Of a stretch of 64,000 nucleotides of DNA, positions 20,227-64,000 are shown piece by piece. The stretch comes from Antedon mediterranea. Its lineage: Eukaryota > Animalia > Echinodermata. The DNA lies in contig NC_092674.1 in the NCBI RefSeq assembly GCF_964355755.1, positions 19,592,001 to 19,656,000 of the forward strand, written 5' to 3'. The position numbers and the translations under genes are program-made. The notes beneath the pieces were generated by a model. It was not told the origin of the DNA and made no database searches. It saw nothing but the letters and a program-made list of their open reading frames with translations. Every line of letters begins with the position of its first letter. Position 1 is the first letter of the stretch.

Positions 20227-20239
20227 AAGGATTCTAAAA

Positions 20240-34456: not shown

Positions 34457-34579
34457 TTATATATAAATCATACTGTAAATTATAGAAACAGTGCTCATAT
34501 TCGGAACATGATCTCATAATCGCGTCGAGCATAGCTCATTGGCGAAAGTTCCGTATTTTTTTTTAGTTGTATGAAAAAA

Positions 34580-34651
34580 TGTCTCTGGCGGGATTCGAAC
34601 CTGCAACCTCTCACTTACAGGGCGAGTATCATACCACTAGACCACAGATCC
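34580..34651 (-). pseudogene. tRNA-like sequence, second family D copy
   Basis: Near-copy of 32778-32849. Confidence 0.6.
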
Positions 34652-34774
34652 AAGTATGGTATTATCACAGATTTTCACCCACCAGATACATTCTCTCATA
34701 CAACAAACGCCCTCACAATCAGTGCAGGCTTAACAAGTCAGAGTAAATTCCAACTTTAATTCGCAACGGTTTTT

Positions 34775-35107
34775 TACTCGGGGTACCCGAGTCTAGTACT
34801 TACTCATTTTCTCCTTCTCCTCCATCTGGACACTATTGAGTAAAAAGTGCGATTTTTAAAGTACTACTCCTTCCTTATTAGTTGTAGTATTGAGCTGGGA
34901 TTTAGCATGAATATACTACAGGGACATGTCCTCAAATCTATAGAGCCGGATTTTTAGATTTCAATCCGGATGCAGCCATATGACGTCTCGAAAATGGTAC
35001 CATATAGCCGTATTTGGTAGGTTATTGATGTGTATGTGACGTCACATCCCGTCTTATGACGTCATTACAGCTTCTTTTGCTGCACCCCGAGTATCGCACA
35101 TTCGTGC
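34775..35107 (+). mobile_element. Helentron/DINE-type element, family C, short copy
   Basis: 5' palindrome actcggg-gta-cccgagt; subTIR tactcggggt / accccgagta; 3' hairpin gcac-attc-gtgc; T runs at both ends. Confidence 0.8.
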
Positions 35108-35374
35108 TTTTTACTCGGGGTACCCGAGTCTAGGACTTACTCATTTTCTCCTCCTCCATCTGGACACTATTGAGTAAAAAGTGCGATTTTTAAAGTACTA
35201 CTCCTCCATTATTAGTTGTAGTATTGAGCTGGGATTTGGCATGAATATACTACAGGGACATGTCCTCAAAGCTATAGAGCCGGATTTTTAATTTTTTGTT
35301 AATTAATTTGTTTAATTAAGAAGCCACAATGTGTGACACACACCACAGCGTTATGTAGTTATATGGTTATATGC

Positions 35375-35447
35375 GGCTTCTTGGCGTAGTGGTTATCACG
35401 TTTGCTTAACACGCAGAAGGTACCTGGTTCGAGCCCGGACGAAACCT
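35375..35447 (+). pseudogene. tRNA-Val(AAC)-derived sequence
   Basis: GGCTTCTTGGCGTAGTGGTTATCACGTTTGCTTAACACGCAGAAGGTACCTGGTTCGAGCCCGGACGAAACC plus TTTTT; A and B boxes intact, stem mismatches present. Confidence 0.8.
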
Positions 35448-35662
35448 TTTTGTTTAAACTTTATGGTGAAAAGTACTGTATACGCAATATGATAATTATA
35501 CACAGTATATCTTATTTTTATTATTTTTTTAAATACTTATTTTGTGTAATCGGTAATTATCACTTTTACACATGTTTATTTTTCTTTGTGCTTATTACCA
35601 TATTTATTTGTAATTTAAATGGATTAAAAAACTTTCTGTAACCCACATTTTTAGTGTAAGTG

Positions 35663-35734
35663 GGTTTCGTAGTGTAGTGATTGTCAAGTCTGCTTAACAC
35701 GCAGAAGGTCCCGGTTAGAACCCTGGCGAAACCT
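35663..35734 (+). pseudogene. tRNA-Val(AAC)-derived sequence
   Basis: GGTTTCGTAGTGTAGTGATTGTCAAGTCTGCTTAACACGCAGAAGGTCCCGGTTAGAACCCTGGCGAAACC; perfect acceptor stem, damaged B box. Confidence 0.75.
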
Positions 35735-35875
35735 ATTTTTCTTTAACTTTAACTGTATACGTCTATATACAGCTTCTTTCTCTGTACCCCGAGTATTGCA
35801 CATTCGTGCTTTTTAGGTTATATGCATGATATGCATATAACCTCTTGATTCTGTCAAAATCTTTATTTATTTATT

Positions 35876-35923
35876 AGGTTATATGCATGATATGCATATA
35901 ACCTCTTGATTCTGTCAGAATCT

Positions 35924-35962
<39 letters not shown>

Positions 35963-37313
35963 TTCTTTCCTTAGCACTATTTGTCCGTCAATTATCTTGA
36001 TATCAGTTTCATCTAACTAAGTCAATTTTTCAGAGTATATTCCTTATGGCCAGGAATCGATGTGGTTATGTTTTCACGGTGCGCAATCAAACATTACGCG
36101 GTCTACGCGCGATTTAACGAAATCACGTTTGTAATCATATCTTCACAAGCATGAATCACTTTTAAACAAAATTTGGTACTCATAAATTTCAGGTCATATT
36201 TCATCATATGGCAATACAATTACGTGCGTAGCGCATATAACGCATGCGTACGCGCGCTTAAAATGTTCAAAATTGTCAGAATATATTTTCGATGAAATTA
36301 GAGTACGTTTCAGGCAATTTTAAGCGTTTAAAAATTGCCATAAGTGCGCAGATTTTTGCACGCGCACTGCGCGTCAAACGTTATTGCGCACTGTTTTTGT
36401 CCGATTACTGTTGTATAACCTTTCTTTAACAATATCATCATATTGTATTAACTTTTCAAAGCCAAACAGCGTTATACGAGTACGTCAAAAGTGACAGGCT
36501 ACGCACGTGTAAGTTAACAAAATGGTGAAAATATGCTAAATTTTAAAATTAATATATATCGTTAGAATGCTCGGGAACACCGATTTTTTATTTCATTTTC
36601 TTGAAGTGTATGTATCATATGTATGATTTATTATCAAATAAAGAGAACAAAAGTTGATTAAGTCATCATTAATGGCATATTAAATTTACAAAAATTAATT
36701 TCGACAATCAAACAAATTATACAATTTTCTTAGGCCGAAATAACAAACTTAACATTAACTTTCTTCCTTAAGAAGTTCATATATTAAAGTTAAAAAGTAT
36801 ATAGTTTGACAGTGCATCATTTTTAAAAATCTTTAAAGATGTCATCTTAGTAAAACATTATAATTCATTACGGTATGTAATAATCTATCTGCACCAAAGT
36901 GGTTACTGCATAGTAAATACACGGAGGAATATTTCCATATTTTTTAGTCAGTTGTGTATGGCTCGGTGGTCTTTGCTCGTGTCTATAGCATTTAAGGTAC
37001 CGAGTTCGAGTCTCACCTTGGGAAACGAAACAAAATAAGATTTTTTTTTATTATCCGTATTGTTTGTTCAATTGTATTTCTTAGTGTATAGATTACACAA
37101 AATGTGGTTTATGACATTATATACGCAGAAGGATCTTTGATCGGATTATGATACCGGCTATTGTATTTGCGTTAGCAAGATCCTATCATATATTATAAAT
37201 AACTAAAGATTCTGAGAAAATCAATCAATCAAAATATCTTAAATCAATCAATTATCTTTATTTAAATCAATGCATATAACCTATAATTCGTCATAGTGAC
37301 GAATTAAATCTAG
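35876..37313 (+). mobile_element. Family A element, uninterrupted copy
   Basis: 5' palindrome aggttatatgcat-gat-atgcatataacct, (TTTA)n, body, 3' subTIR atgcatataacct, hairpin taattcgtca-tag-tgacgaatta, end CTAG; TT flanks. Confidence 0.9.
36952..37025 (+). promoter_or_regulatory. tRNA-like Pol III A/B-box module in family A (present in every complete A body)
   Basis: A box TGGCTCGGTGG (36959) and B-box/T-loop GAG-TTCGAGT-CTC (37002) at tRNA spacing; most other copies have GAGATCGAG. Confidence 0.55.
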
Positions 37314-37315
37314 TT

Positions 37316-37623
37316 AGGTTATATGCATGATATGCATATAACCTCTTGATTCTGTCAAAATCTTTATTTATTAGGTTATATGCATTATCATGCATATAAC
37401 CTCTTGATTCTGTCAAAATCTTTATTAGGTTATATGCATGATATGCATATAACCTCTTGATTCTGTCAAAATCTTTATTTATTTATTTATTAGGTTATAT
37501 GCATTATCATGCATATAACCTCTTGATTCTGTCAAAATCTTTATTTATTAGGTTATATGCATGATATGCATATAACCTCTTGATTCTGTCAAAATCTTTA
37601 TTTATTTATTTATTTATTTATTT
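37316..37623 (+). repeat. Stack of five family A 5' heads
   Basis: Five copies of aggttatatgcat(gat/tatc)atgcatataacctcttgattctgtcaaaatc separated by partial (TTTA)n; loop order GAT, TATC, GAT, TATC, GAT. Confidence 0.95.
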
Positions 37624-40454
37624 ATTCTTTCCTTAGCACTATTTTGTCCGTGCATTATCTTGGCATCAGTTTAATCTAGCTAAGTCAAGTTTTCAGAGTA
37701 TATTCCTCATGGCCAGGTATCGATGTGGTTATATTTTCACGATGCGTAATCAAAAATTACGCGGTCTACGCGCGATTTTACGAAATCACGTTTGTAATCA
37801 TATCTTCACAAGCATGAATCACAATTAAACAAAATTTGGTACTCATAAATTTCAGGTCATATTTCATCATATGGCAATACAATTACGTGCGTAGCGCATA
37901 TAACGCTTGCGTACGCGCGCTTAAAATGTTCAAAATTGTCAAAATTTATTTTCGATGAAATTAGAGTACGTTTCAGGCAATTTTAAGCGTTTAAAAAATT
38001 GCCATGAGTGCGCAGATTTTTGCACGCGCACTGCGCGTTATACGTTAATGCGCACTCTTTTTGTCCGATTTCGGTTTTACAACCTTTCTTTAATAATATC
38101 ATCATATTTTATTCACTTTTCAACGCGTAATTGCCTTATACGAGCACGTCAAAAGTGACAGGCTACGCACGTGTAAGTTAACAAAATGGTGAAAATATGC
38201 TAAATTTTAAAATTAATATAGATCGTCAGAATGCTCGGGAACACATATTTTTTATTTCATTTTCTTGAAGTGTATGTATCTTATGTATGATTTATTATTA
38301 AACTAAGGGAACAAAAGTTGATTAAGCCATAATTAATTGCATATTAAATTTAAAAAAAATCATTTCGACAATCAAACAAATTATGACATTTTCTTAGGCC
38401 AAAATAACAAACTTAACATTAACTTTCTTCCTCCAAAAGTTCATATATTAAAGTTAAAAGTATATAGTTTGACAGTGCATCATTTTTGTACATTTTTAGA
38501 GATGTCATCATAGTAAAAAATTATAATTCATTGCGGTATGTAATAATCTATCTGCACCAAAGTGGTTACTGCATAGTAAATACACGGAGGAATTTTTCTA
38601 CAATTTTTAGACAGTTGTGTATGGCTCGGTGGTGTGTGCTCGTGTCTATGGCACTCAAGGTACCGAGATCGAGTCTCACCTTGGGAAACGAAATAAGATT
38701 TTTTTTTTATTATCCGTATTGTTTGTTCAAATTTATTTCTTAGTGTATAGATTATACACATGATTTATAATGAAATCTAGATAAAAATTAACTTATGTCT
38801 TTATTATTATGTAACAACAAATGTGGTTTATGACATTATACGCATATGGATCTTTGATCGGATTGTGATACCGGCTATGGTGTTCGCGTTAGCAAGGTCC
38901 TATCATATATTATAAATAATTAAAGATTCTGAGAAAATCAATCAATCAATATATCTTTTAAAAATCAATTATCTTGATTTAAATCAATGCATATAACCTA
39001 TAATTCGTCATAGTGACGAATTAAATCTAGTTTATTTATTCTTTCCTTAGCACTATTTTGTCCGTGAATTATCTTGATATCAGTTTCATCTATCTAAGTC
39101 AATTTTTCAGAGTATATTCCTTATGGCCAGGAATCGATGTGGTTATATTTTCACGATGCGTAATCAAAAATTACGCGGTCTACGCGCGATTTTACGAAAT
39201 CACGTTTGTAATCATATCTTCACAAGCATGAATCACAATTAAACAAAATTTGGTACTCATAAATTTCAGGTCATATTTCATCATATGGCAATACAATTAC
39301 GTGCGTAGCGCATATAACGCTTGCGTACGCACGCTTAAAATGTTCAAAATTGTCAAAATTTATTTTCGATGAAATTAGAGTACGTTTCAGGCAATTTTAA
39401 GCGTTTAAAAAATTGCCATGAGTGCGCAGATTTTTGCACGCGCACTGCGCGTTATACGTTAATGCGCACTCTTTTTGTCCGATTTCGGTTGTACAACCTT
39501 TCTTTAATAATATCATCATATTTTATTCACTTTTCAACGCGTAATTGCCTTATACGAGCACGTCAAAAGTGACAGGCTACGCACGTGTAAGTTAACAAAA
39601 TGGTGAAAATATGCTAAATTTTAAAATTAATATAGATCGTCAGAATGCTCGGGAACACGTATTTTTTATTTAATTTTCTTGAAGTGTATGTATCTTATGT
39701 ATGATTTATTATTAAACTAAGGGAACAAAAGTTGATTAAGCCATAATTAATTGCATATTAAATTAAAAAAAATTCATTTCGACAATCAAACAAATTATGA
39801 CATTTTCTTAGGCAAAAATAACAAACTTAACATTAACTTTCTTCCTTCAAAAGTTCATATATTAAAGTTAAAAGTATATAGTTTGACAGTGCATCATTTT
39901 TGTACATTTTTAGAGATGTCATCATAGTAAAAAATTATAATTCATTGCGGTATGTAATAATCTATCTGCACCAAAGTGGTTACTGCATAGTAAATACACG
40001 GAGGAATTTTTCTACAAATTTTAGTCAGTTGTGTATGGCTCGGTGGTGTGTGCTCGTGTCTATGGCACTCAAGGTACCGAGATCGAGTCTCACCTTGGGA
40101 AATGAAATAATTTTTTTTTTTTATTATCCGTATTGTTTGTTCAAATTTATTTCTTAGTGTATATATTATACACATGATTTATAATGAAATCTAGATAAAA
40201 AATAACTTATGTCTTTATTATTATGTAACAGCAAATGTGGTTTATGACATTATACGCAGAGGGATCTTTGATCGGATTGTGATACCGGCTATTGTATTCG
40301 CGTTAGCAAGGTCCTATCATATATTATATATTATTTAAAGAATCTGACAAAATCAATGAATCAAAATATCTTTTAAAAATCAATTATCTTTATTTTAATT
40401 ATCAATGCATATAACCTATAATTCGTCATAGTGACGAATTAAATCTAGTTTATT

Positions 40455-41938
40455 AGGTTATATGCATGATATGCATATAACCTCTTGATTCTGTCAAAAT
40501 CTTTATTTATTTATTTATTTATTTATTTATTCTTTCCTTAGCACTATTTGTCCGTGAATTATCTTGGCATCAGTTTCATCTATCTAAGTCAATTTTTCAG
40601 AGTATATTCCTTATGGCCAGGAATCGATGTGGTTATGTTTTCACGATGCGCAATCAAAAATTACGCGGTCTACGCGCGATTTAACGAAATCACGTTTGTA
40701 ATCATATCTTCACAAACATGAATCACTTTTAAACAAAATTTGGTACTCATAAATTTCAGGTCATATTTCATCATATGGCAATACAATTACGTGCGTAGCG
40801 CATATAACGCATGCGTACGCGCGCTTAAAATGTTGAAAATTGTCAGAATTTATTTTCGATGAAATTAGAGTACGTTTCAGGCAATTTTAAGCGTTTAAAA
40901 AATTGCCATGAGTGCGCAGATTTTTGCACGCGCACTGCGCGTCAAACGTTAATGCGCACTCTTTTTGTCCGATTACTGTTGTGTAACCTTTCTTTAATAA
41001 TATCATCATATTTTATTCACTTTTCAACGCGAAACAGCGTTATACGAGCACGTCAAAAGTGACGGGCTACGCACGTGTAAGTTAACAAAATGGTGAAAAT
41101 ATGCTAAATTTTAAAATTAATATATATCGTTAGAATGCTCGGGAACACATATTTTTTATTTAATTTTCTTGAAGTGTATGTATCTTATGTATGATTTATT
41201 ATTAAACTAAGGGAACAAAAGTTGATTAAGCCATAATTAATTGCATATTAAATTAAAAAAAATTCATTTCGACAATCAAACAAATTATGACATTTTCTTA
41301 GGCCAAAATAACAAACTTAACATTAACTTTCTTCCTTCAAAAGTTCATATATTAAAGTTAAAAGTATATAGTTTGACAGTGCATCATTTTTGTACATTTT
41401 TAGAGATGTCATCATAGTAAAAAATTATAATTCATTGCGGTATGTAATAATCTATCTGCACCAAAGTGGTTACTGCATAGTAAATACACGGAGGAATTTT
41501 TCTACAATTTTTAGTCAGTTGTGTATGGCTCGGTGGTGTGTGCTCGTGTCTATGGCACTCAAGGTACCGAGATCGAGTCTCACCTTGGGAAACGAAATAA
41601 ATTTTTTTTTTTATTGTCCGTATTGTTTGTTCAAATTTATTTCTTAGTGTATATATTATACACATGATTTATAATGAAATCTAGATAAAAAATAACTTAT
41701 GTCTTTATTATTATGTAACAGCAAATGTGGTTTATGACATTATACGCAGAGGGATCTTTGATCGGATTGTGATACCGGCTATTGTATTCACGTTAGCAAG
41801 GTCCTATCATATATTATATATTATTTAAAGAATCTGAGAAAATCAATGAATCAAAATATCTTTTAAAAATAAATTATCTTTATTTTAATTATCAATGCAT
41901 ATAACCTATAATTCGTCATAGTGACGAATTAAATCTAG
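40455..41938 (+). mobile_element. Family A element, uninterrupted copy
   Basis: Head, (TTTA)n, body, then subTIR, hairpin and CTAG. Confidence 0.9.
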
Positions 41939-41942
41939 TTTA

Positions 41943-43561
41943 TTGGTTATCCGCCTCAAGCGGATAACCTTTGTTATTGTAGTGTTTCTTTTTTTTTTTT
42001 ATTATTCTTCTTTCTTTCCGCCACTTTTGTTCGCGACGTTTCTCTTCAACGTGTTAACATAACACGTTGTAACTTGGTCAACATTTAGACATTTAACTGA
42101 AGTTGTGCAGCCAAGCTTTTGGACGCTGTCAGATACGCGTAGCGTAAGTTACGCGCGATTTTCTGAAAATCTTAAATCGGTCATAACTTCAAAACCGATA
42201 AATATTTTTTAACGAAGTTTTCAGCCACGTTTTCTTCACATCAATGGCTAACTTTTTCGATCTCTACCAAATTTTTGGAGACTAGAAAATTTTCGCGTAA
42301 ATTGCGTTTGAAATTTAAAAATTCTCCAAATTTGTACACGCTGTTTCTCTGCAACGCGTTAACATAACATGTTGTAACTTGGTCAACATTTTGACATCTA
42401 ACTGAAATTGTGCAGCCAAGCTTTTGGACGCTGTCAGAGGCGCGTATCGTAAGTTACGCGCGATTTTCTGAAAATCTTAAATTGATCATAACTTTGAAAC
42501 AGATAAATATTTTTTAACGTAATTTTCAGCCACGTTTGCTTCACATCAATTGTTAACTTTTTTAACCCTAACGAATTTTGTAACATTCGAAAGTGCGCGC
42601 GTAAACGACGTTTGAAGTTTTAAAATGCTTGAAATTAATTTCTGATTAAATTAGAGCACGATTCAGGTCATTTTAAGCGTTTAAAAAATTGCCACTGGTG
42701 CGCACATTTTTACGCGCGCACGGCGCAGGGAACGCGTATGAGCATTTCTTTTACACGATTTATGTTTTTACATCTTTGGTTAACAATTTTACGTTATTTT
42801 ATTCACTATTCAACTTGAAATGGCATTCTACGAGCACGTTAAACATGACTGGTTGCGCAGAAAAACGTCAAAAAATTGTGAAAATGTTGCAAAATATGTC
42901 TACTTTTTAAAACGATACAGTTCATCAGAATGCAAGGTTACCCCTATTTTTTATTTTTATTTCTTGCAGTTTATGAATCATAGATCTGATTTATAATAAT
43001 TTTTAATGTTAAAACGTGTTTGCTGGCTACACTATTTGCATATTAAATATAATTTTGGAAATTGTTATCATCAAACAAACGATAACATTTTCAAAGAGCA
43101 AAACAATAGACATAACTGTTATATTTTTTCTTCACATGTTAATATATAAAACTTGAAAGTATGCTCTTTCATAATATGTCACTGTTTAAAATTTATGAAG
43201 ATTTCATCATAGTAAAAATTATGATTTAGTTCGATATGTAATAATCAACTTGCATCGAGGGAGTTCACGACATACCGAACGAACGAGTAATCTTTCTTCG
43301 GATTATCTTCGGCAGGTGCTCATATGACTCGATGTGTAGTGCAACCGACTTTGGTATCAGAGGTACCGGGATCGAGTCCCGTCACGGGAAAACAATTAAA
43401 TATAAGGATTTATTTGGTTGTTACACTGAAAAGGCAGTTTTAATTTCGAATAGGCTACTTTTTTGGAAAAGCCAAAAACTGAAAAGTACTTGAATGCTCA
43501 AGATATGTTTTGTTGCGGGCGGATAACCAAACTTGTCCTCAAGTGACGAGTTCAGATCTAG
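41943..43561 (+). mobile_element. Family B element, uninterrupted (most diverged B copy)
   Basis: 5' palindrome ggttatccgc-ctcaa-gcggataacc, poly-T, ~300-bp internal direct repeat, 3' subTIR gcggataaccaa, hairpin aacttgtc-ctcaagt-gacgagtt, end CTAG. Confidence 0.9.
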
Positions 43562-46442
43562 TTTATTTATTCTTTCCTTAGCACTATTTTGTCCGTGCAT
43601 TATCTTGGCATCAGTTTAATCTAGCTAAGTCAAGTTTTCAGAGTATATTCCTCATGGCCAGGAATCGATGTGGTTATATTTTCACGATGCGTAATCAAAA
43701 ATTACGCGGTCTACGCGCGATTTTACGAAATCACGTTTGTAATCATATCTTCACAAGCATGAATCACAATTAAACAAAATTTGGTACTCATAAATTTCAG
43801 GTCATATTTCATCATATGGCAATAAAATTACGTGCGTAGCGCATATAACGCTTGCGTACGCGCGCTTAAAATGTTCAAAATTGTCAAAATTTATTTTCGA
43901 TGAAATTAGAGTACGTTTCAGGCAATTTTAAGCGTTTAAAAAATTGCCATGAGTGCGCAGATTTTTGCACGCGCACTGCGCGTTAAACGTTAATGCGCAC
44001 TCTTTTTGCCCGATTTCTGTTTTACAATCTTTCTTTAATAATATCATCATATTTGATTCAGGTTTCAACTCGAAATTGCGTTATACGAGCACGTCAAAAG
44101 TGACTGGCTACGCACGTATAAGTTAACAAAATGGTGAAAATATGCTAAATTTTAAAATTAATATATATCATCAGAATGCAGGGGAACACCTATTTTTTAT
44201 TTCATTTTCTTGAAGTGTATGTATCATATGTATGATTTATTATCAAATAAAGAGAACAAAAGTTGATTAAGTCATCATTAATTGCATATTAAATTTTTAA
44301 AAAATAATTTCGACAACCAAACAAATTATGACATTTTCTTAGGCCAAAATAACAAACTTAACATTAACTTTCTTCCTTCAAAAATTTTATATATTAAAGT
44401 TAAAAGTATGTAGTTTGACAGTGCATCATTTGTATACATTTTAAAGATGTCATCATAGTAAAAAATTATAATTCATTTCGGTATGTAATAATCTATTTGC
44501 ATCAAAGTGGTTACTGCATAGTAATTACACGGAGGAATTTTTCTACAACTTTTAGTCAGTTGTGTACGGCTCGGTGGTCTGTGCTCGTGTCTATGGCATT
44601 CAAGGTACCGAGATCGAGTCTCACCTTGGGAAACGAAATAAGATTTTTTTTTTATTATCCGTATTGTTTGTTCAAATTTATTTCTTAGTGTATAGATTAT
44701 ACACATGATTTATAATGAAATCTAGATAAAAATTAACTTATGTCTATATTATTATGTAACAACAAATGTGGTTTATGACATTATACGCATATGGATCTTT
44801 GATCGGATTGTGATACCGGCTATGGTGTTCGCGTTAGCAAGGTCCTATCATATATTATAAATAATTAACGATTCTGAGAAAATCAATCAATCAATATATC
44901 TTTTAAAAATCAATTATCTTTATTTAAATCAATGCATATAACCTATAATTCGTCATAGTGACGAATTAAATCTAGTTTATTTATTCTTTCCTTAGCACTA
45001 TTTGTCCGTGAATTATCTTGGCATCAGTTTCATCTATCTAAGTCAATTTTTCAGAGTATATTCCTTATGGCCAGGAATCGATGTGGTTATGTTTTCACGA
45101 TGCGCAATCAAAAATTACGCGGTCTACGCGCGATTTAACGAAATCACGTTTGTAATCATATCTTCACAAACATGAATCACTTTTAAACAAAATTTGGTAC
45201 TCATAAATTTCAGGTCATATTTCATCATATGGCAATACAATTACGTGCGTAGCGCATATAACGCATGCGTACGCGCGCTTAAAATGTTGAAAATTGTCAG
45301 AATTTATTTTCGATGAAATTAGAGTACGTTTCAGGCAATTTTAAGCGTTTAAAAAATTGCCATGAGTGCGCAGATTTTTGCACGCGCACTGCGCGTCAAA
45401 CGTTAATGCGCACTCTTTTTGTCCGATTACTGTTGTGTAACCTTTCTTTAATAATATCATCATATTTTATTCACTTTTCAACGCGAAACAGCGTTATACG
45501 AGCACGTCAAAAGTGACGGGCTACGCACGTGTAAGTTAACAAAATGGTGAAAATATGCTAAATTTTAAAATTAATATATATCGTTAGAATGCTCGGGAAC
45601 ACATATTTTTTATTTAATTTTCTTGAAGTGTATGTATCTTATGTATGATTTATTATTAAACTAAGGGAACAAAAGTTGATTAAGCCATAATTAATTGCAT
45701 ATTAAATTAAAAAAAATTCATTTCCACAATCAAACAAATTATGACATTTTCTTAGGCCAAAATAACAAACTTAACATTAACTTTCTTCCTTCAAAAGTTC
45801 ATATATTAAAGTTAAAAGTATATAGTTTGACAGTGCATCATTTTTGTACATTTTTAGAGATGTCATCATAGTAAAAAATTATAATTCATTGCGGTATGTA
45901 ATAATCTATCTGCACCAAAGTGGTTACTGCATAGTAAATACACGGAGGAATTTTTCTACAATTTTTAGTCAGTTGTGTATGGCTCGGTGGTGTGTGCTCG
46001 TGTCTATGGCACTCAAGGTACCGAGATCGAGTCTCACCTTGGGAAACGAAATAAATTTTTTTTTTTATTGTCCGTATTGTTTGTTCAAATTTATTTCTTA
46101 GTGTATATATTATACACATGATTTATAATGAAATCTAGATAAAAAATAACTTATGTCTTTATTATTATGTAACAGCAAATGTGGTTTATGACATTATACG
46201 CAGAGGGATCTTTGATCGGATTGTGATACCGGCTATTGTATTCACGTTAGCAAGGTCCTATCATATATTATATATTATTTAAAGAATCTGAGAAAATCAA
46301 TGAATCAAAATATCTTTTAAAAATAAATTATCTTTATTTTAATTATCAATGCATATAACCTATAATTCGTCATAGTGACGAATTAAATCTAGTTAGGTTA
46401 TATGCATGATATGCATATAACCTCTTGATTCTGTCAGAATCT

Positions 46443-46481
<39 letters not shown>

Positions 46482-48101
46482 TTGGTTATCCGCCTCAAGC
46501 GGATAACCTTTGTTATTGTAGTGTTACTTTTTTTTTTTATTATTCTTCTTTCTTTCTCAGATTTTGTGTACGCGTTTTCTCTTGAACGTGTTAACATAAC
46601 ATTTTGTAACTTGGTCAACATATAGACAATTAACTGAAGATGTACTGCGAAGCTTTTTGACAATGTCAGATCCGCGTAGCGTAAGTTACGCGCGATTTTC
46701 TGAAAATCTTAAATCGGTCATAACTTCGAAACCGATAAATATTTTTTAACGAAATTTTCAGCCACGTTTTCTTCACATCAATGGCTAACTTTTTCGCTCT
46801 TCAGCAAATTTTTGAACACTAGAAAGTCTGCGCGTAAACTGCGTTTGAAATTTTAAAATGCTCCTAATTTGTGCACGCTGTTTCTCTGTAACGCGTTAAC
46901 ATAACATTTTGTAACTTGTTCAACATATAGACATTTTACTGAAGTTGTCCAGCCAAGCTTTTTGACGATGTCAGAGCCGCGTAGCGTAAGTTACGCGTGA
47001 TTTTCTGAAAATCTTAAATTGGTTATAACTTCGACACAAATGAATATTTTTTAACGTCATTTTCAGCCACGTTTGCTTCACATCAATAGTTAACTTTTTT
47101 TACGCTACCGCAACTTGTAACATTAGAAAGTGCGCGCGTAAATGGCGTTTGAAATTTTAAAATGCTTCAAATCAATTTCTGATTAAATTAGAGCATGATT
47201 CAGGTCATTTTAAGCGTTTAAAAAATTGCCACTGGTGCGCACATTTTTACGCGCGCACGGCGCAGGGAACACGTTTGAGCCTTTCTTTTACACGATTTGT
47301 GTTTTTAAATCTTCGGTTAACAATTTTACGTTATTTTATTCACTTTTCAACTTGAAATGGCGTTCTACGAGCACGTTAAACATGATAGGTTGCGCACGAA
47401 AACGTCAACAAATTGTGAAAATGTTGCAAAATATGTCTACTTTTAAAAATGAAACAGTTCATCAGAATGCAAGGTTACCCCCATTTTTTATTTTATTTTC
47501 TTGCAGTGTATTAATCATAGGTCTAATTTATTATAGTCTTGAATGTTAAAAAGTGTTTGATGGCTACATTATTTGCATATTAAATGTAATTTTTGAAATA
47601 ATTGTCATCAAACAAACATAAACATATTCAAAGAGCAAAACAATAAACATAACGTTTATCTTTTTTCTTTACATGTTAATATATAAAACTTGAATGTATG
47701 CACTTTCATAATATGTAACTGTTTAAAATTTGTGAAGATTTCATCATAGTAAAAATTATGATTTAAGTTCATTATGTAATAATCAACTTGCATCGAGGGG
47801 GGTTCACGACATACCGAATGCACGAGGACTCTTTCTTCGGATTTTCTTCAGCAGGTGCTCATATGGCTCGATGTGTAGTGCAACCGACTTTGGTATCAGA
47901 TGTACCGGGTTCGAGTCCCGTCACGGGAAAACAATTAATTAAAGGGGTTTAGTTGGTTATTACACTGAGAGGGCAGTTTTAATTTTGAATAGCCTACTTT
48001 TTTTGGAAAAGTCATAACTTGGAAGTACTTGAATACGCAAGATACGCTTTGTTGCTGGCGGATAACCAAACTCGTCCTCAAGTGACGAGTTTAAGTTCTA
48101 G
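46482..48101 (+). mobile_element. Family B element inserted in the (TTTA)n of an A copy
   Basis: Complete B head, body and CTAG end, with TTTA repeats on both sides. Confidence 0.92.
47855..47930 (+). promoter_or_regulatory. tRNA-like module in family B (present in all B bodies)
   Basis: A-box-like TGGCTCGATGT and B box GGTTCGAGTCC within the stem CGGG/CCCG. Confidence 0.55.
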
Positions 48102-52350: not shown

Positions 52351-52575
52351 AGGTTATATGCATTATCATGCATATAACCTCTTGATTCTGTCAAAATCTT
52401 TATTAGGTTATATGCATTATCATGCATATAACCTCTTGATTCTGTCAAAATCTTTATTAGGTTATATGCATTATCATGCATATAACCTCTTGATTCTGTC
52501 AAAATCTTTATTAGGTTATATGCATTATCATGCATATAACCTCTTGATTCTGTCAAAATCTTTATTTATTTATTT
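52351..52575 (+). repeat. Stack of four identical family A heads (TATC loop, 54-bp period)
   Basis: Heads at 52351, 52405, 52459 and 52513, followed by four consecutive bodies of the matching gtgaattatcttgatatc subfamily. Confidence 0.95.
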
Positions 52576-55500
52576 ATTCTTTCCTTAGCACTATTTTGTC
52601 CGTGAATTATCTTGATATCAGTTTCATCTATTTAAGTCAATTTTTCAGAGTATATTCCTTATGGCCAGGAATCGATGTGGTTATATTTTCACGATGCGTA
52701 ATCAAAAATTACGCGGTCTACGCGCGATTTTACGAAATCACGTTTGTAATCATATCTTCACAAGCATGAATCACAATTAAACAAAATTTGGTACTCATAA
52801 ATTTCAGGTCATATTTCATCATATGGCAATACAATTACGTGCGTAGCGCATATAACGCTTGCGTACGCGCGCTTAAAATGTTCAAAATTGTCAAAATTTA
52901 TTTTCGATGAAATTAGAGTACGTTTCAGGCAATTTTAAGCGTTTAAAAAATTGCCATGAGTGCGCAGATTTTTGCACGCGCACTGCGCGTTATACGTTAA
53001 TGCGCACTCTTTTTGTCCGATTTCGGTTGTACAACCTTTCTTTAATAATATCATCATATTTTATTCACTTTTCAACGCGTAATTGCCTTATACGAGCACG
53101 TCAAAAGTGACAGGCTACGCACGTGTAAGTTAACAAAATGGTGAAAATATGCTAAATTTTAAAATTAATATAGATCGTCAGAATGCTCGGGAACACATAT
53201 TTTTTATTTCATTTTCTTGAAGTGTATGTATCTTATGTATGATTTATTATTAAACTAAGGGAACAAAAGTTGATTAAGCCATAATTAATTGCATATTAAA
53301 TTAAAAAAAATTCATTTCGACAATCAAACAAATTATGACATTTTCTTAGGCCAAAATAACAAACTTAACATTAACTTTCTTCCTCCAAAAGTTCATATAT
53401 TAAAGTTAAAAGTATATAGTTTGACAGTGCATCATTTTTGTACATTTTTAGAGATGTCATCATAGTAAAAAATTATAATTCATTGCGGTATGTAATAATC
53501 TATCTGCACCAAAGTGGTTACTGCATAGTAAATACACGGAGGAATTTTTCTACAATTTTTAGACAGTTGTGTATGGCTCGGTGGTGTGTGCTCGTGTCTA
53601 TGGCACTCAAGGTACCGAGATCGAGTCTCACCTTGGGAAACGAAATAAGATTTTTTTTTTATTATCCGTATTGTTTGTTCAAATTTATTTCTTAGTGTAT
53701 ATATTATACACATGATTTATAATGAAATCTAGATAAAAAATAACTTATGTCTTTATTATTATGTAACAGCAAATGTGGTTTATGACATTATACGCAGAGG
53801 GATCTTTGATCGGATTGTGATACCGGCTATTGTATTCGCGTTAGCAAGGTCCTATCATATATTATAAATAATTAAAGAATCTGAGAAAATCAATGAATCA
53901 AAATATCTTTTAAAAATCAATTATCTTTATTAAAATCAATGCATATAACCTATAATTCGTCATAGTGACGAATTAAATCTAGTTTATTTATTCTTTCCTT
54001 AGCACTATTTTGTCCGTGAATTATCTTGATATCAGTTTCATCTATCTAAGTCAATTTTTCAGAGTATATTCCTTATGGCCAGGAATCGATGTGGTTATAT
54101 TTTCACGATGCGTAATCAAAAATTACGAGGTCTACGCGCGATTTTACGAAATCATGTTTGTAATCATATCTTCACAAGCATGAATCACAATTAAACAAAA
54201 TTTGGTACTCATAAATTTCAGGTCATATTTCATCATATGGCAATACAATTACGTGCGTAGCGCATATAACGCTTGCGTACGCGCGCTTAAAATGTTCAAA
54301 ATTGTCAAAATTTATTTTCGATGAAATTAGAGTACGTTTCAGGCAATTTTAAGCGTTTAAAAAATTGCCATGAGTGCGCAGATTTTTGCACGCGCACTGC
54401 GCGTTATACGTTAATGCGCACTCTTTTTGTCCGATTTCGGTTGTACAACCTTTCTTTAATAATATCATCATATTTTATTCACTTTTCAACGCGTAATTGC
54501 CTTATACGAGCACGTCAAAAGTGACAGGCTACGCACGTGTAAGTTAACAAAATGGTGAAAATATGCTAAATTTTAAAATTAATATAGATCGTCAGAATGC
54601 TCGGGAACACATATTTTTTATTTAATTTTCTTGAAGTGTATGTATCTTATGTATGATTTATTATTAAACTAAGGGAACAAAAGTTGATTAAGCCATAATT
54701 AATTGCATATTAAATAAAAAAAAATTCATTTCGACAATCAAACAAATTATGACATTTTCTTAGGCCAAAATAACAAACTTAACATTAACTTTCTTCCTTC
54801 AAAAGTTCATATATTAAAGTTAAAAGTATATAGTTTGACAGTGCATCATTTTTGTACATTTTTAGAGATGTCATCATAGTAAAAAATTATAATTCATTGC
54901 GGTATGTAATAATCTATCTGCACCAAAGTGGTTACTGCATAGTAAATACACGGAGGAATTTTTCTACAATTTTTAGTCAGTTGTGTATGGCTCGGTGGTG
55001 TGTGCTCGTGTCTATGGCACTCAAGGTACCGAGATCGAGTCTCACCTTGGGAAACGAAATACATTTTTTTTTTATTATCCGTATTGTTTGTTCAAATTTA
55101 TTTCTTAGTGTATATATTATACACATGATTTATAATGAAATCTAGATAAAAAATAACTTATGTCTTTATTATTATGTAACAGCAAATGTGGTTTATGACA
55201 TTATACGCAGAGGGATCTTTGATCGGATTGTGATACCGGCTATTGTATTCGCGTTAGCAAGGTCCTATCATATATTATATATTATTTAAAGAATCTGAGA
55301 AAATCAATGAATCAAAATATCTTTTAAAAATAAATTATCTTTATTTTAATTATCAATGCATATAACCTATAATTCGTCATAGTGACGAATTAAATCTAGT
55401 TTATTTATTCTTTCCTTAGCACTATTTTGTCCGTGAATTATCTTGATATCAGTTTCATCTATCTAAGTCAATTTTTCAGAGTATATTCCTTATGGCCAGA

Positions 55501-58500
55501 AATCGATGTGGTTATATTTTCACGATGCGTAATCAAAAATTACGCGGTCTACGCGCGATTTTACGAAATCACGTTTGTAATCATATCTTCACAAGCATGA
55601 ATCACAGTTAAACAAAATTTGGTACTCATAAATTTCAGGTCATATTTCATCATATGGCAATACAATTACGTGCGTAGCGCATATAACGCTTGCGTACGCG
55701 CGCTTAAAATGTTCAAAATTGTCAAAATTTATTTTCGATGAAATTAGAGTACGTTTCAGGCAATTTTAAGCGTTTAAAAAATTGCCATGAGTGCGCAGAT
55801 TTTTGCACGCGCACTGCGCGTTATACGTTAATGCGCACTCTTTTTGTCCGATTTCGGTTGTACAACCTTTCTTTAATAATATCATCATATTTTATTCACT
55901 TTTCAACGCGTAATTGCCTTATACGAGCACGTCAAAAGTGACAGGCTACGCACGTGTAAGTTAACAAAATGGTGAAAATATGCTAAATTTTAAAATTAAT
56001 ATAGATCGTCAGAATGCTCGGGAACACATATTTTTTATTTAATTTTCTTGAAGTGTATGTATCTTATGTATGATTTATTATTAAACTAAGGGAACAAAAG
56101 TTGATTAAGCCATAATTAATTGCATATTAAATTAAAAAAAATTCATTTCGACAATCAAACAAATTATGACATTTTCTTAGGCCAAAATAACAAACTTAAC
56201 ATTAACTTTCTTCCTTCAAAAGTTCATATATTAAAGTTAAAAGTATATAGTTTGACAGTGCATCATTTTTGTACATTTTTAGAGATGTCATCATAGTAAA
56301 AAATTATAATTCATTGCGGTATGTAATAATCTATCTGCACCAAAGTGGTTACTGCATAGTATTTACACGGAGGAATTTTTCTACGATTTTTAGTCAGTTG
56401 TGTATGGCTCGGTGGTGTGTGCTCGTGTCTATGGCACTCAAGGTACCGAGATCGAGTCTCACCTTGGGAAACGAAATAAACTTTTTTTTTTATTATCCGT
56501 ATTGTTTGTTCAAATTTATTTCTTAGTGTATATATTATACACATGATTTATAATGAAATCTAGATAAAAAATAACTTATGTCTTTATTATTATGTAACAG
56601 CAAATGTGGTTTATGACATTATACGCAGAGGGATCTTTGATCGGATTGTGATACCGGCTATTGTATTCGCGTTAGCAAGGTCCTATCATATATTATATAT
56701 TATTTAAAGAATCTGAGAAAATCAATGAATCAAAATATCTTTTAAAAATAAATTATCTTTATTTTAATTATCAATGCATATAACCTATAATTCGTCATAG
56801 TGACGAATTAAATCTAGTTTATTTATTCTTTCCTTAGCACTATTTTGTCCGTGAATTATCTTGATATCAGTTTCATCTATCTAAGTCAATTTTTCAGAGT
56901 ATATTCCTTATGGCCAGGAATCGATGTGGTTATATTTTCACGATGCGTAATCAAAAATTACGCGGTCTACGCGCGATTTTACGAAATCACGTTTGTAATC
57001 ATATCTTCACAAGCATGAATCACAATTAAACAAAATTTGGTACTCATAAATTTCAGGTCATATTTCATCATATGGCAATACAATTACGTGCGTAGCGCAT
57101 ATAACGCTTGCGTACGCGCGCTTAAAATGTTCAAAATTGTCAAAATTTATTTTCGATGAAATTAGAGTACGTTTCAGGCAATTTTAAGCGTTTAAAAAAT
57201 TGCCATGAGTGCGCAGATTTTTGCACGCGCACTGCGCGTTATACGTTAATGCGCACTCTTTTTGTCCGATTTCGGTTGTACAACCTTTCTTTAATAATAT
57301 CATCATATTTTATTCACTTTTCAACGTGTAATTGCCTTATACGAGCACGTCAAAAGTGACAGGCTACGCACGTGTAAGTTAACAAAATGGTGAAAATATG
57401 CTAAATTTTAAAATTAATATAGATCGTCAGAATGCTCGGGAACACATATTTTTTATTTCATTTTCTTGAAGTGTATGTATCTTATGTATGATTTATTATT
57501 AAACTAAGGGAACAAAAGTTGATTAAGCCATAATTAATTGCATATTAAATTTAAAAAAATTCATTTCGACAATCAAACAAATTATGACATTTTCTTAGGC
57601 CAAAATAACAAACTTAACATTAACTTTCTTCCTCCAAAAGTTCATATATTAAAGTTAAAAGTATATAGTTTGACAGTGCATCATTTTTGTACATTTTTAG
57701 AGATGTCATCATAGTAAAAAATTATAATTCATTGCGGTATGTAATAATCTATCTGCACCAAAGTGGTTACTGCATAGTAAATACACGGAGGAATTTTTCT
57801 ACAATTTTTAGACAGTTGTGTATGGCTCGGTGGTGTGTGCTCGTGTCTATGGCACTCAAGGTACCGAGATCGAGTCTCACCTTGGGAAACGAAATAAGAT
57901 TTTTTTTTTATTATCCGTATTGTTTGTTCAAATTTATTTCTTAGTGTATATATTATACACATGATTTATAATGAAATCTAGATAAAAAATAACTTATGTC
58001 TTTATTATTATGTAACAGCAAATGTGGTTTATGACATTATACGCAGAGGGATCTTTGATCGGATTGTGATACCGGCTATTGTATTCGCGTTAGCAAGGTC
58101 CTATCATATATTATAAATAATTAAAGAATCTGAGAAAATCAATGAATCAAAATATCTTTTAAAAATAAATTATCTTTATTTTAATTATCAATGCATATAA
58201 CCTATAATTCGTCATAGTGACGAATTAAATCTAGTTTATTTATTCTTTCCTTAGCACTATTTTGTCCGTGCATTATCTTGGCATCAGTTTCATCTAGCTA
58301 AGTCAAGTTTTCAGAGTATATTCCTTATGGCCAGGAATCGATGTGGTTATATTTTCACGATGCGTAATCAAAAATTACGCGGTCTACGCGCGATTTTACG
58401 AAATCACGTTTGTAATCATATCTTCACAAGCATGAATCACAATTAAACAAAATTTGGTACTCATAAATTTCAGGTCATATTTCATCATATGGCAATTAAA

Positions 58501-59653
58501 TTACGTGCGTAGCGCATATAACGCTTGCGTACGCGCGCTTAAAATGTTCAAAATTGTCAAAATTTATTTTCGATGAAATTAGAGTACGTTTCAGGCAATT
58601 TTAAGCGTTTAAAAAATTGCCATGAGTGCGCAGATTTTTGCACGCGCACTGCGCGTTAAACGTTAATGCGCACTCTTTTTGCCCGATTTCTGTTTTACAA
58701 TCTTTCTTTAATAATATCATCATATTTGATTCAGGTTTCAACTCGAAATTGCGTTATACGAGCACGTCAAAAGTGACTGGCTACGCACGTATAAGTTAAC
58801 AAAATGGTGAAAATATGCTAAATTTTTAAATTAATATATATCGTCAGAATGCAGGGGAACACCTATTTTTTATTTCATTTTCTTGAAGTGTATGTATCAT
58901 ATGTATGATTTATTATCAAATTAAGAGAACAAAAGTTGATTAAGTCATCATTAATTGCATATTAAATTAAAAAAACATAATTTCGACAATCAAACAAATT
59001 ATGACATTTTCTTAGGCCAAAATAACAAACTTAACATTAACTTTCTTCCTTCAAAAATTCATATATTAAAGTTAAAAGTATGTAGTTTGACAGTGCATCA
59101 TTTGTATACATTTTAAAGATGTCATCATAGTAAAAAATTATAATTCATTTCGGTATGTAATAATCTATTTGCATCAAAGTGGTTACTGCATAGTAAATAC
59201 ACGGAGGAATTTTTCTACAACTTTTAGTCAGTTGTGTACGGCTCGGTGGTCTGTGCTCGTGTCTATGGCATTCAAGGTACCGAGATCGAGTCTCACCTTG
59301 GGAAACGAAATAAGATTTTTTTTTTATTATCCGTATTGTTTGTTCAAATTTATTTCTTAGTGTATATATTATACACATGATTTATAATGAAATCTAGATA
59401 AAAATTAACTTATGTCTTTATTATTATGTAACAACAAATGTGGTTTATGACATTATACGCATATGGATCTTTGATCGGATTGTGATACCGGCTATGGTGT
59501 TCGCGTTAGCAAGGTCCTATCATATATTATAAATAATTAAAGATTCTGAGAAAATCAATCAATCAATATATCTTTTAAAAATCAATTATCTTTATTTAAA
59601 TCAATGCATATAACCTATAATTCGTCATAGTGACGAATTAAATCTAGTTTATT

Positions 59654-59930
59654 AGGTTATATGCATTATCATGCATATAACCTCTTGATTCTGTCAAAAT
59701 CTTTATTTATTGGTTATCCGCCTCAAGCGGATAACCTTTGTTATTGTAGTGTTACTTTTTTTTTAGGTTATATGCATTATCATGCATATAACCTCTTGAT
59801 TCTGTCAAAATCTTTATTTATTTATTGGTTATCCGCCTCAAGCGGATAACCTTTGTTATTGTAGTGTTACTTTTTGGTTATCCGCCTCAAGCGGATAACC
59901 TTTGTTATTGTAGTGTTACTTTTTTTTTTT
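59654..59930 (+). repeat. Mixed head stack A-B-A-B-B
   Basis: A 59654, B 59710, A 59765, B 59825, B 59874; followed by bodies B (59931), B (61501) and A (63070). Confidence 0.95.
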
Positions 59931-61492
59931 ATTATTCTTCTTTCTTTCTCCGATTTTGTGTACGCGTTTTCTCTTGAACGTGTTAACATAACATTTTGTA
60001 ACTTGGTCAACATATAGACAATTAACTGAAGATGTACTGCGAAGCTTTTTGACAATGTCAGATCCGCGTAGCGTAAGTTACGCGCGATTTTCTGAAAATC
60101 TTAAATCGGTCATAACTTCGAAACCGATAAATATTTTTTAACGAAATTTTCAGCCACGTTTTCTTCACATCAATGGCTAACTTTTTCGCTCTTCAGCAAA
60201 TTTTTGAACACTAGAAAGTCTGCGCGTAAACTGCGTTTGAAATTTTAAAATGCTCCTAATTTGTGCACGCTGTTTCTCTGTAACGCGTTAACATAACATT
60301 TTGTAACTTGTTCAACATATAGACATTTTACTGAAGTTGTCCAGCCAAGCTTTTTGACGATGTCAGAGCCGCGTAGCGTAAGTTACGCGTGATTTTCTGA
60401 AAATCTTAAATTGGTTATAACTTCGAAACAAATGAATATTTTTTAACGTCATTTTCAGCCACGTTTGCTTCACATCAATAGTTAACTTTTTTAACGCTAT
60501 CGCAATTTGTAACATTAGAAAGTGCGCGCGTAAATGGCGTTTGAAATTTTAAAATGCTTCAAATCAATTTCTGATTAAATTAGAGCACGATTCAGGTCAT
60601 TTTAAGCGTTTAAAAAATTGCCACTGGTGCGCACATTTTTACGCGCGCACGGCGCAGGGAACAGGTATGAGCATTTCTTTTACACGATTTGTGTTTTTAA
60701 ATCTTCTGTTAACAATTTTACGTTATTTTATTCACTTTTCAACTTGAAATGGCGTTCTACGAGCACGTTAAACATGACAGGTTGCGCACGAAAACGTCAA
60801 CAAATTGTGAAAATGTTCCAAAATATGTCTACTTTTAAAAATGACACAGTTCATCAGAATGCAAGGTTACCCCCATTTTTTATTTTAATTTCTTGCAGTG
60901 TATGAATCATAGGTCTGATTTATTATAGTGTTGAATGCTAAAACGTGTTTGATGGCTACATTATTTGCATATTAAATATAATTTTTGAAATATTTATCAT
61001 CAAACAAACATAAACTTATTCAAAGAGCAAAACAATAAACATAACATTTATCTTTTTTCTTTACATGTTAATATATAAAACTTGAAAGTATGTACTTTCA
61101 TAAAATATCAGCGTTTAAAATTTTTGAAGATTTCATCATAGTAAAATTTATGATTTAAGTTTGATATGTAATAATCAACTTGCATCGAGGGGGTTCACGA
61201 CATACCGAATGAACGAGGACTCTTTCTTCGGATTTTCGTCAGCAGGTGGTCATATGGCTCGATGTGTAATGCAACCGACTTTGGTATCAGAGGTACCGGG
61301 TTCGAGTCCCGTCACGGGAAAACAATTAATTAAAAGGGTTTAGTTGGTTATTACACTGAGAGGGCAGTTTTAATTTTGAATAGCCTACTTTTTTTGGAAA
61401 AGTCATAACTTGGAAGTACTTGAATACGCAAGATACGCTTTGTTGCTGGCGGATAACCAAACTCGTCCTCAAGTGACGAGTTTAAGTTCTAG
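59874..61492 (+). mobile_element. Family B element, uninterrupted innermost copy, inserted in the poly-T of another B
   Basis: Preceded by a B head ending gttacttttt; followed by a T run and a B body (61501-63062). Confidence 0.9.
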
Positions 61493-64000
61493 TTTTTTTT
61501 ATTATTCTTCTTTCTTTCTCGGATTTTGTGTACGCGTTTTCTCTTTAACGTGTTAACATAACATGTTGTAACTTCGTCAACATATAGACATTTAACTGAA
61601 GATGTACTGCGAAGCTTTTTGACAATGTCAGATCCGCGTAGCGTAAGTTACGCGCGATTTTCTGAAAATCTTAAATCGGTCATAACTTCGAAACCGATAA
61701 ATATTTTTTAACGAAATTTTCAGCCACGTTTTCTTCACATCAATGGCTAACTTTTTCGCTCTTCAGCAAATTTTTGAACACTAGAAAGTCTGCGCGTAAA
61801 CTGCGTTTGAAATTTTAAAATGCTCCTAATTTGTGCACGCTGTTTCTCTGTAACGCGTTAACATAACATTTTGTAACTTGTTCAACATATAGACATTTTA
61901 CTGAAGTTGTCCAGCCAAGCTTTTTGACGATGTCAGAGCCGCGTAGCGTAAGTTACGCGTGATTTTCTGAAAATCTTAAATTGGTTATAACTTCGAAACA
62001 AATGAATATTTTTTAACGTCATTTTCAGCCACGTTTGCTTCACATCAATAGTTAACTTTTTTAACGCTATCGCAATTTGTAACATTAGAAAGTGCGCGCG
62101 TAAATGGCGTTTGAAATTTTAAAATGCTTCAAATCAATTTCTGATTAAATTAGAGCACGATTCAGGTCATTTTAAGCGTTTAAAAAATTGCCACTGGTGC
62201 GCACATTTTTACGCGCGCACGGCACAGGGAACAGGTATGAGCATTTCTTTTACACGATTTGTGTTTTTAAATCTTCTGTTAACAATTTTACGTTATTTTA
62301 TTCACTTTTCAACTTGAAATGGCGTTCTACGAGCACGTTAAACATGACAGGTTGCGCACGAAAACGTCAACAAATTGTGAAAATGTTCCAAAATATGTCT
62401 ACTTTTAAAAATGACACAGTTCATCAGAATGCAAGGTTACCCCCATTTTTTATTTTAATTTCTTGCAGTGTATGAATCATAGGTCTGATTTATTATAGTG
62501 TTGAATGCTAAAACGTGTTTGATGGCTACATTATTTGCATATTAAATATAATTTTTGAAATATTTATCATCAAACAAACATAAACTTATTCAAAGAGCAA
62601 AACAATAAACATAACATTTATCTTTTTTCTTTACATGTTAATATATAAAACTTGAAAGTATGTACTTTCATAAAATATCAGCGTTTAAAATTTTTGAAGA
62701 TTTCATCATAGTAAAATTTATGATTTAAGTTTGATATGTAATAATCAACTTGCATCGAGGGGGTTCACGACATACCGAATGAACGAGGACTCTTTCTTCG
62801 GATTTTCGTCAGCAGGTGGTCATATGGCTCGATGTGTAATGCAACCGACTTTGGTATCAGAGGTACCGGGTTCGAGTCCCGTCACGGGAAAACAATTAAT
62901 TAAAAGGGTTTAGTTGGTTATTACACTGAGAGGGCAGTTTTAATTTTGAATAGCCTACTTTTTTTGGAAAAGTCATAACTTGGAAGTACTTGAATACGCA
63001 AGATACGCTTTGTTGCTGGCGGATAACCAAACTCGTCCTCAAGTGACGAGTTTAAGTTCTAGTTTATTTATTCTTTCCTTAGCACTATTTTGTCCGTGAA
63101 TTATCTTGATATCAGTTTCATCTATTTAAGTCAATTTTTCAGAGTATATTCCTTATGGCCAGGAATCGATGTGGTTATATTTTCACGATGCGTAATCAAA
63201 AATTACGCGGTCTACGCGCGATTTTACGAAATCACGTTTGTAATCATATCTTCACAAGCATGAATCACAATTAAACAAAATTTGGTACTCATAAATTTCA
63301 GGTCATATTTCATCATATGGCAATACAATTACGTGCGTAGCGCAAATAACGCTTGCGTACGCGCGCTTAAAATGTTCAAAATTGTCAAAATTTATTTTCG
63401 ATGAAATTAGAGTACGTTTCAGGCAATTTTAAGCGTTTAAAAAATTGCCATGAGTGCGCAGATTTTTGCACGCGCACTGCGCGTTATACGTTAATGCGCA
63501 CTCTTTTTGTCCGATTTCGGTTGTACAACCTTTCTTTAATAATATCATCATATTTTATTCACTTTTCAACGCGTAATTGCCTTATACGAGCACGTCAAAA
63601 GTGACAGGCTACGCACGTGTAAGTTAACAAAATGGTGAAAATATGCTAAATTTTAAAATTAATATAGATCGTCAGAATGCTCGGGAACACATATTTTTTA
63701 TTTCATTTTCTTGAAGTGTATGTATCTTATGTATGATTTATTATTAAACTAAGAGAACAAAAGTTGATTAAGCCATAATTAATTGCATATTAAATTAAAA
63801 AAAATTCATTTCGACAATCAAACAAATTATGACATTTTCTTAGGCCAAAATAACAAACTTAACATTAACTTTCTTCCTCCAAAAGTTCATATATTAAAGT
63901 TAAAAGTATATAGTTTGACAGTGCATCATTTTTGTACATTTTTAGAGATGTCATCATAGTAAAAAATTATAATTCATTGCGGTATGTAATAATCTATCTG

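Follow-up and report, generated by a model that had tools for sequence, protein, structure and literature searches.

Organisation of the array

The 64,000-nucleotide stretch of Antedon mediterranea analysed here (contig NC_092674.1, positions 19,592,001 to 19,656,000; hereafter the window) ends in a nested array of repeated elements that all lie on the same strand and belong to three families, A, B and C. These families are non-coding and have ends of the Helentron type, as in the Helentron-associated interspersed elements (HINEs, non-autonomous HLE2), and they carry tRNA-derived sequence that was likely captured twice from the host genome. The array opens within a T-run of a tRNA-bearing repeat unit (filled site 34770-34776), and the other copy of this host unit supplies the paralogous empty site at about 32960-32975, where the T-run is uninterrupted. 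Two C copies, 15 A heads with 14 complete bodies and one more cut by the window end, and five B heads with four bodies make up its contents (Table 1). Complete A bodies measure 1352-1411 bp and B bodies 1561-1563 bp.

In each family a 5' hairpin is present, one arm of which is repeated near the 3' end as a subterminal repeat, and a short terminal hairpin lies between this repeat and the end of the element (14 A, 4 B and 2 C tails). All listed element junctions are T-flanked, the right end of the array being outside the window. Families A and B have a T-rich tract 30-60 bp 3' of the 5' hairpin, and each family has repeats inside its elements, namely TTTA tracts in A, a 305-bp tandem in B and a duplicated tRNA-Val unit in C. 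There is no stop-to-stop frame of at least 120 amino acids beyond 31794, hence none inside the array, and no RepHel frame in the open reading frame (ORF) list of the window. A first-pass annotation of the stretch had recognised three Helentron-type families, and the HINE anatomy of all three on the plus strand bears this out; their features match those given for HINEs in the available portions of PMC4067079, PMC7492417 and PMC11417382.

Table 1. Coordinates of the array, its elements, the tRNA-derived modules and the adjoining host unit
Feature	Position	Strand	Method or remarks
Nested array of HINE-like families C, A and B	34776..64000, extending past the right end of the window	+	self-BLAST, landmark mapping
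Short C copy, without tRNA module	34776..35107	+	landmark mapping, paired-box scan
Long C copy	35113..35809 (697 nt)	+	ends of short C; about 100 internal bp swapped for about 470 bp with two tRNA-Val units
tRNA-Val(AAC) derivative 1	35375..35447	+	ARAGORN; Rfam RF00005 28.5 bits; 15/15 invariant positions; T5 directly behind
tRNA-Val(AAC) derivative 2	35663..35734 (bounds 35662/3-35734/5)	+	ARAGORN; Rfam RF00005 43.5 bits
First complete A element	35877..37313 (head 35877, body 35962-37313)	+	landmark mapping; 13 more complete bodies follow
Decayed tRNA relic, family A	36952..37023	+	paired-box matrix, invariant positions; T-run 10-17 nt behind
Further A relics, 72 nt each	starts 38615, 40029, 41519, 44560, 45973, 49099, 50513, 51930, 53567, 54981, 56398, 57816, 59232	+	
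Five stacked A heads, every later one within the T-rich tract of its predecessor	37317..37626	+	more stacks at 52352-52575 and 59655-59930
Core common to A and B	37917..38696	+	69.5% identical to 60537-61329; ends just behind the tRNA relic
First complete B element	41945..43561	+	other B bodies 46539-48101, 59931-61492, 61501-63062
Decayed tRNA relic, family B	61248..61319	+	same module at 43318, 47857, 62818
tRNA-like sequence (ARAGORN Thr) in host repeat unit	34580..34651	-	5' end about 125 bp from the left junction of the array; second copy 32778-32849

tRNA ancestry and decay of the A and B modules

With single-base variants allowed, the same motif pair is found in 14/14 complete A bodies and 4/4 B bodies, and the spacing from T8 to G53 is 45 nt, equal to that of the tRNA-Val copy in the window. 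G53 is 362 nt from the element end in typical copies of A; in B the distance is 192 nt. The first-pass annotation had placed the modules about 300 (A) and about 200 bp (B) before the end; the figure of about 300 is right only for the first A copy, which is internally deleted.

Descent of these modules from tRNA, which had been proposed at the outset, is well supported by several comparisons. When the six tRNA-like sequences that ARAGORN finds in the window were used, without the A and B modules, to train a matrix of paired A and B boxes, this matrix selected exactly the module site in all six A/B bodies tested, and its score is reached by 0-4 of 200 dinucleotide shuffles of these bodies, as compared with 43/200 for the short C copy. 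Aligned in register with the Val copy, each of the seven A/B copies scored keeps 13-14 of the 15 tRNA invariant positions used for scoring, the loop pattern Y32-T33-R37 is seen in six of them, and in-register Watson-Crick pairing amounts to 42% versus 12-35% in six slid controls (A/B rows only). A sequence-only model made from the same six tRNA-like sequences matches the T-arm part of 18/18 modules, with E-values from 5e-4 to 0.76, and is strong only for some.

The cloverleaf itself has decayed. In the scored copies 1-3 of the seven acceptor-stem pairs are left, the stem-pair tests are individually weak (p 0.013-0.37), and single-strand folding gave no signal in the five modules tested (z-scores -1.0 to +0.3). 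Covariance-model similarity was likewise not found, as neither the whole window nor 181-nt stretches gave a match of the Rfam tRNA model (RF00005) to an A or B module at E<=10; the sole Rfam match on the 181-nt B stretch was that of a 15-nt T-arm to tmRNA (7.2 bits). A14 is absent from all seven scored copies, none of which has an intact A box that includes it, and an A14-bearing variant is seen in one public contig; stretches of the window were matched in assembled contigs of 16 runs from eight studies and five coded organisms, none recorded as RNA. Further losses from the A box and the other invariant positions are G19 in B, T8 in three A copies and G10 in one B copy. A predicted type 2 layout for RNA polymerase III (Pol III), with a B-box core (GWTCRANNC) at tRNA spacing from the A box, is present in all 18 A/B copies and in the first tRNA-Val derivative of family C, and fails in the second. 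Binding of TFIIIC to the intact B boxes is possible on this prediction.

Two probable acquisitions of tRNA sequence

Families A and B are about 69% identical over about 780 bp that include the module (BLAST and alignment), after which no homology is seen until the terminal motifs. Because the shared core runs through the module, the relic in A and B represents one inherited capture, and the homology that had been raised as a possibility is thereby confirmed. Three independent captures are rejected on account of this homology, which leaves two acquisitions in the window. The recurrence in three families stressed by the first-pass annotation therefore stands as far as the presence of modules goes, but it reduces to two events, A and B not being independent. 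With two independent events, there is a 1-in-4 chance that both captures are sense-oriented. Source material for capture is plentiful, as four more full tRNA-like sequences occur in non-HINE repeats within 2.6 kb of the array (ARAGORN, Rfam).

In family C, the two tRNA-Val(AAC) derivatives that had been noticed in the long copy were recovered with ARAGORN and Rfam. The first falls just below the RF00005 gathering score of 29 bits, and both are pseudogene-like, with several cloverleaf pairs broken. Derivative 1 keeps an intact B-box core, with 45 nt from T8 to G53, and in derivative 2 a change of C56 to A breaks the core in this copy. Position 35680 is G in most public contigs, and the window's copy therefore has a poorer second A box than the family at large. 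The flanks of the two derivatives align with each other, giving a unit of about 290 bp, which makes the pair an old tandem duplicate that serves as the central repeat of long C; public contigs also include a long-C variant that jumps back 273 bases, consistent with a third Val unit. With a T-run behind it, each unit would be more consistent with a captured gene and its terminator than with a retrocopy. Long C is multi-copy in the contigs of all four runs examined (coded organisms A, B and C), where the summed contig depth of the tRNA segment relative to the shared 5' C core is 0.50, 0.28, 0.11 and 0.13, values of depth and not of copy number.

These results support a capture in C separate from that in A and B, as had been suspected. 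A co-oriented module near the 3' end of every family, which had also been described, is found in all A and B bodies; in C only one of the two copies has modules, and one of these lies mid-element, 362 nt before the end of the 697-nt element. The module is dispensable in this family, as the short copy keeps intact ends without it.

Nesting and target sites

With each head read as an opening and each tail as a closing bracket, 17 of 18 tails pair in stack order with a head of the same family, and the body that comes next, at 63070 (family A), fits the head then open at the top of the stack. One A tail, at 59647, is without a head, and the bodies 40522/44976 and 50928/52565 form two pairs of 99.8-99.9% identity. 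Of the 20 heads, 13 are located immediately within the T-rich tract of the preceding head, six follow a tail and one follows C, and none of the 18 complete bodies is interrupted by an insertion. In the host copy, the distance from the start of the body to the module is 998 bases for A and 1324 for B, and no insertion has used the T10 run that follows the A module after 12 nt.

Since nesting takes place in the 5' head tract, about 1 kb from the module, attraction by Pol III is needless and the module is not the target mark. The first-pass annotation had suggested that the modules help explain self-targeting; module-guided self-targeting is rejected for this array, whose junctions map to 5' heads. 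The restriction to the head tract may instead reflect targeting guided by the element ends. Poly-T targeting, clustering and host capture have been described or proposed for HINEs (PMC4067079, available portion). The target specificity seen at 35816-64000, where head tracts only are used, is more striking than the tRNA modules.

Conservation of the boxes

Conservation between families was assessed in an alignment of 4 of the 14 A and 3 of the 4 B bodies. The two boxes together show an identity of 0.746 as opposed to a core mean of 0.681, and 33% of 724 shifted control masks do equally well or better; the whole module, at 0.632, lies under the core mean. Variable columns within A number 3/23 in the boxes and 174/1420 overall, and within B 2/23 and 182/1564. 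In public contigs covering one A module, the sites varying at a level of at least 5% were 2/23 in the boxes, 4/49 in the rest of the module and 15 in the 100 bases upstream; runs X13 and X15, with merely 2 and 9 matching contigs, are too few for conservation testing. No clear excess of box conservation over the flanks emerges, and the functional TFIIIC/Pol III role put forward earlier is unsupported, given this result and the missing covariance match in A and B, two of the three outcomes that the first-pass annotation had named as counting against it. On sequence grounds, selection on the boxes is neither shown nor excluded.

Probable passive capture and alternative explanations

Passive capture and amplification, with the tRNA cargo copied along as a passenger of HINE-type families, is probably the correct explanation. 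Rolling-circle capture would have brought a tRNA gene or pseudogene into an ancestor of A and B, the two families later acquiring different sequence behind it, and the C copy would separately have taken up a tRNA-Val gene with its terminator, tandem duplication coming next. An autonomous Helentron elsewhere in the genome would amplify the families through their ends alone. Nesting and the common strand would follow from T-run insertion, and the preference for the head tract may reflect binding of the transposase to the hairpin next to it. Occupancy of the intact B boxes by TFIIIC is still possible, although no observation requires it.

Several points weigh against this explanation. The capture events and source tRNA genes are inferred and were seen in neither case, and 9-14 other runs of at least five T per body go unused, so that T-run preference alone leaves the head-tract restriction unexplained. 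The tRNA-bearing form of C also makes up a larger share in the runs of coded organism A than in those of B or C. The remaining points concern the boxes themselves and could indicate that the module is kept by selection at the level of the element, where TFIIIC at the B box, with or without Pol III, would open or insulate donors or give rise to a short RNA and would favour box-bearing subfamilies. The B-box core is intact in 18/18 A and B copies across about 31% divergence, with the stems decayed; an 18-nt block of variable loop and B box is 84% identical between A and B, a value reached by 7.8% of control positions, and for the 25-nt stretch that separates the boxes identity is 47%, among the lowest 3.6% of the core. 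The T-stem pair 52:62 is compensatory, A-T in A and G-C in B (the covariation measures behind it include the C-Val row and related copies, and the slide control was relied on instead). Both common box variants in public contigs fall at the degenerate positions 15 and 60, and the number of invariant positions kept has, by rough estimate under neutral decay, a probability P of 0.01-0.2, a figure biased by the fact that the boxes prompted the notice. The T-runs behind the A module and both Val units are candidate terminators, and long C is abundant in public contigs. However, the two-box identity is not clearly higher than that of the core, the A box is damaged in all scored copies, the second Val derivative has lost its B-box core in the window's copy, and short C persists without any module. 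In addition, 18 bare B-box cores are present in the 34.8 kb that precede the array, roughly half of them outside tRNA-like sequence, and the insertion sites lie about 1.0-1.3 kb upstream of the module of the host copy. Maintenance by element-level selection appears unlikely on this balance, if still the strongest competitor to passive capture.

Less likely again is an origin of the A/B relic as the head of an ancient tRNA-derived short interspersed nuclear element (SINE) that was retrotransposed into the A/B ancestor, its box-kept look dating from the SINE past and its evolution having been neutral since. Boxes retained while the stems of the cloverleaf are lost are the usual look of SINE heads, and in this the modules are alike. 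The array module is unlike them in being internal, about 1 kb from the 5' end, and A and B share no SINE body, tail or target duplication behind it. The contig depth shows no rise at the module, such as a free high-copy SINE of at least 80% identity would produce, and the share running on into unlike sequence is 0-0.01 in two deep runs. A pattern scan of metagenomes returned eight loci of three kinds, four in bacterial repeat context and four in animal-like repeats, which were not used as support and have no BLAST match to the window and no ARAGORN or Rfam tRNA match. Among the animal-like loci, selected by pattern, L001/L004 and L002/L006 have the same T-arm motif heading a shared repeated body, which would be in keeping with a SINE origin. 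L001:1615-2058 and L006:1617-1900 are tRNA-headed repeated elements of SINE-like look on animal-like metagenome contigs. Finally, the A and B motifs would be chance look-alikes in a GC-richer patch, with tRNA sequence in C only, if the missing Rfam match, the lack of a folding signal and the weak single stem-pair tests were taken at face value; the matrix score above shuffles, the exact register, the loop pattern in nearly all copies and pairing beyond every slid control make such a coincidence very improbable.

Neighbouring repeats

The host unit of about 340 bp is present in two copies (32676-33018 and 34458-34775), each with a minus-strand tRNA-like sequence (51 and 47 bits), and in both a rolling-circle element has inserted 125-170 bp upstream of the tRNA 5' end (n=2). 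A short motif that immediately precedes the tRNA is common to this unit and a 360-bp tandem repeat at 31862-32677, which has one tRNA-like sequence per unit (ARAGORN Asp, anticodon ATC; 39 and 45 bits; starts 32194 and 32554) with a T-run behind and resembles a tRNA-pseudogene array. The sequence-only model adds a tRNA-like fragment at 31862. Isolated tRNA-like relics or halves lie at 18570-18650 (-), 22096-22114 (+) and 29884-29915 (-); the relic near 18590 retains the two boxes, is followed by a T-run and gives no Rfam match.

Between the two host copies lies a canonical non-autonomous Helitron (HLE1; 33026-34456), with a TC start, a tetranucleotide microsatellite, a 3' GC hairpin and a CTAG end, inserted between A and T. 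Other elements in the window are a broken long interspersed nuclear element (LINE) with endonuclease and reverse transcriptase frames (8757-11948), a second LINE reverse transcriptase frame (30766-31794), a fragmented Gypsy-like long terminal repeat (LTR) element with reverse transcriptase and an integrase zinc finger (12408-15853), and three elements whose ends are long inverted repeats and whose interiors contain tandem repeats, of foldback type or like miniature inverted-repeat transposable elements (18839-21617, 23495-25420 and 27664-28631).

Significance and comparison with known systems

Even as passengers, the modules clearly exemplify the capture and amplification of non-coding RNA genes by rolling-circle elements. 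Such elements would inflate tRNA gene counts, pass for SINEs in annotation and spread many potential TFIIIC sites, and the pair of short and long C, with the same ends and with or without tRNA, is a ready test of whether a Pol III promoter benefits a DNA transposon. No description of tRNA modules in HINEs or Helentrons was found in the literature searched, which did not extend to Repbase notes and subscription journals. Pol III boxes have reportedly been described in an oyster satellite that is related to pearl elements; if this is right, it would be a closer precedent than those considered below.

HINEs and DINE-1-like elements, such as DINE-1, HINE-Mo and the oyster Cg_HINE with their Helentron partners, share with the array families a 5' subterminal repeat with a nearby inverted copy, a microsatellite or T-rich tract, central tandem repeats, a 3' subterminal repeat with a hairpin, T-flanked insertion, clustering and the absence of an ORF, as far as the available text of their descriptions goes. 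Unlike them, the array families bear tRNA-derived segments and show deep, Russian-doll nesting in the head tract, and no autonomous partner is present in the window. DINE-1 of D. melanogaster and D. yakuba has been stated to be without Pol III sites or tRNA similarity (PMC2374699), and the word tRNA is absent from the available main text of PMC4067079, PMC7492417 and PMC11417382.

Another system of interest is the tRNA-Cys cluster of Arabidopsis chromosome 5, which lies over annotated Helitrons and is similar in its tandem 0.3-0.4-kb tRNA units, their common orientation and the link to rolling-circle elements (PMC10701932). In the accessible part of that paper the authors speculate on Helitron capture, and capture and amplification of non-coding RNA genes by rolling-circle elements was described there in 2023 as unreported. 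The array differs from this cluster in having clear element ends, HLE2-type class, tRNA pseudogenes and multi-copy carriers.

The TRIMp3 elements (Cassandra, Helenus and Ajax) are likewise non-autonomous and not SINEs, carry Pol III promoter sequence derived from small RNAs and inflate tRNA gene predictions; as LTR retroelements they need an RNA intermediate, so that the promoter has an evident job (PMC10886601, available portion). The array families, in contrast, have no LTRs, primer-binding site or polypurine tract, and move through a DNA intermediate. On a bolder generalisation, tRNA genes would be captured time and again by Helentron-type elements, in which the cloverleaf is lost and selection preserves the TFIIIC B box as a cis-element leaving rolling-circle donors accessible. 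This appears doubtful; if true, such elements would be an unrecognised engine of tRNA-pseudogene amplification in invertebrate genomes, and a Pol III-equipped class of DNA transposons would stand in parallel to TRIMp3 among the LTR elements.

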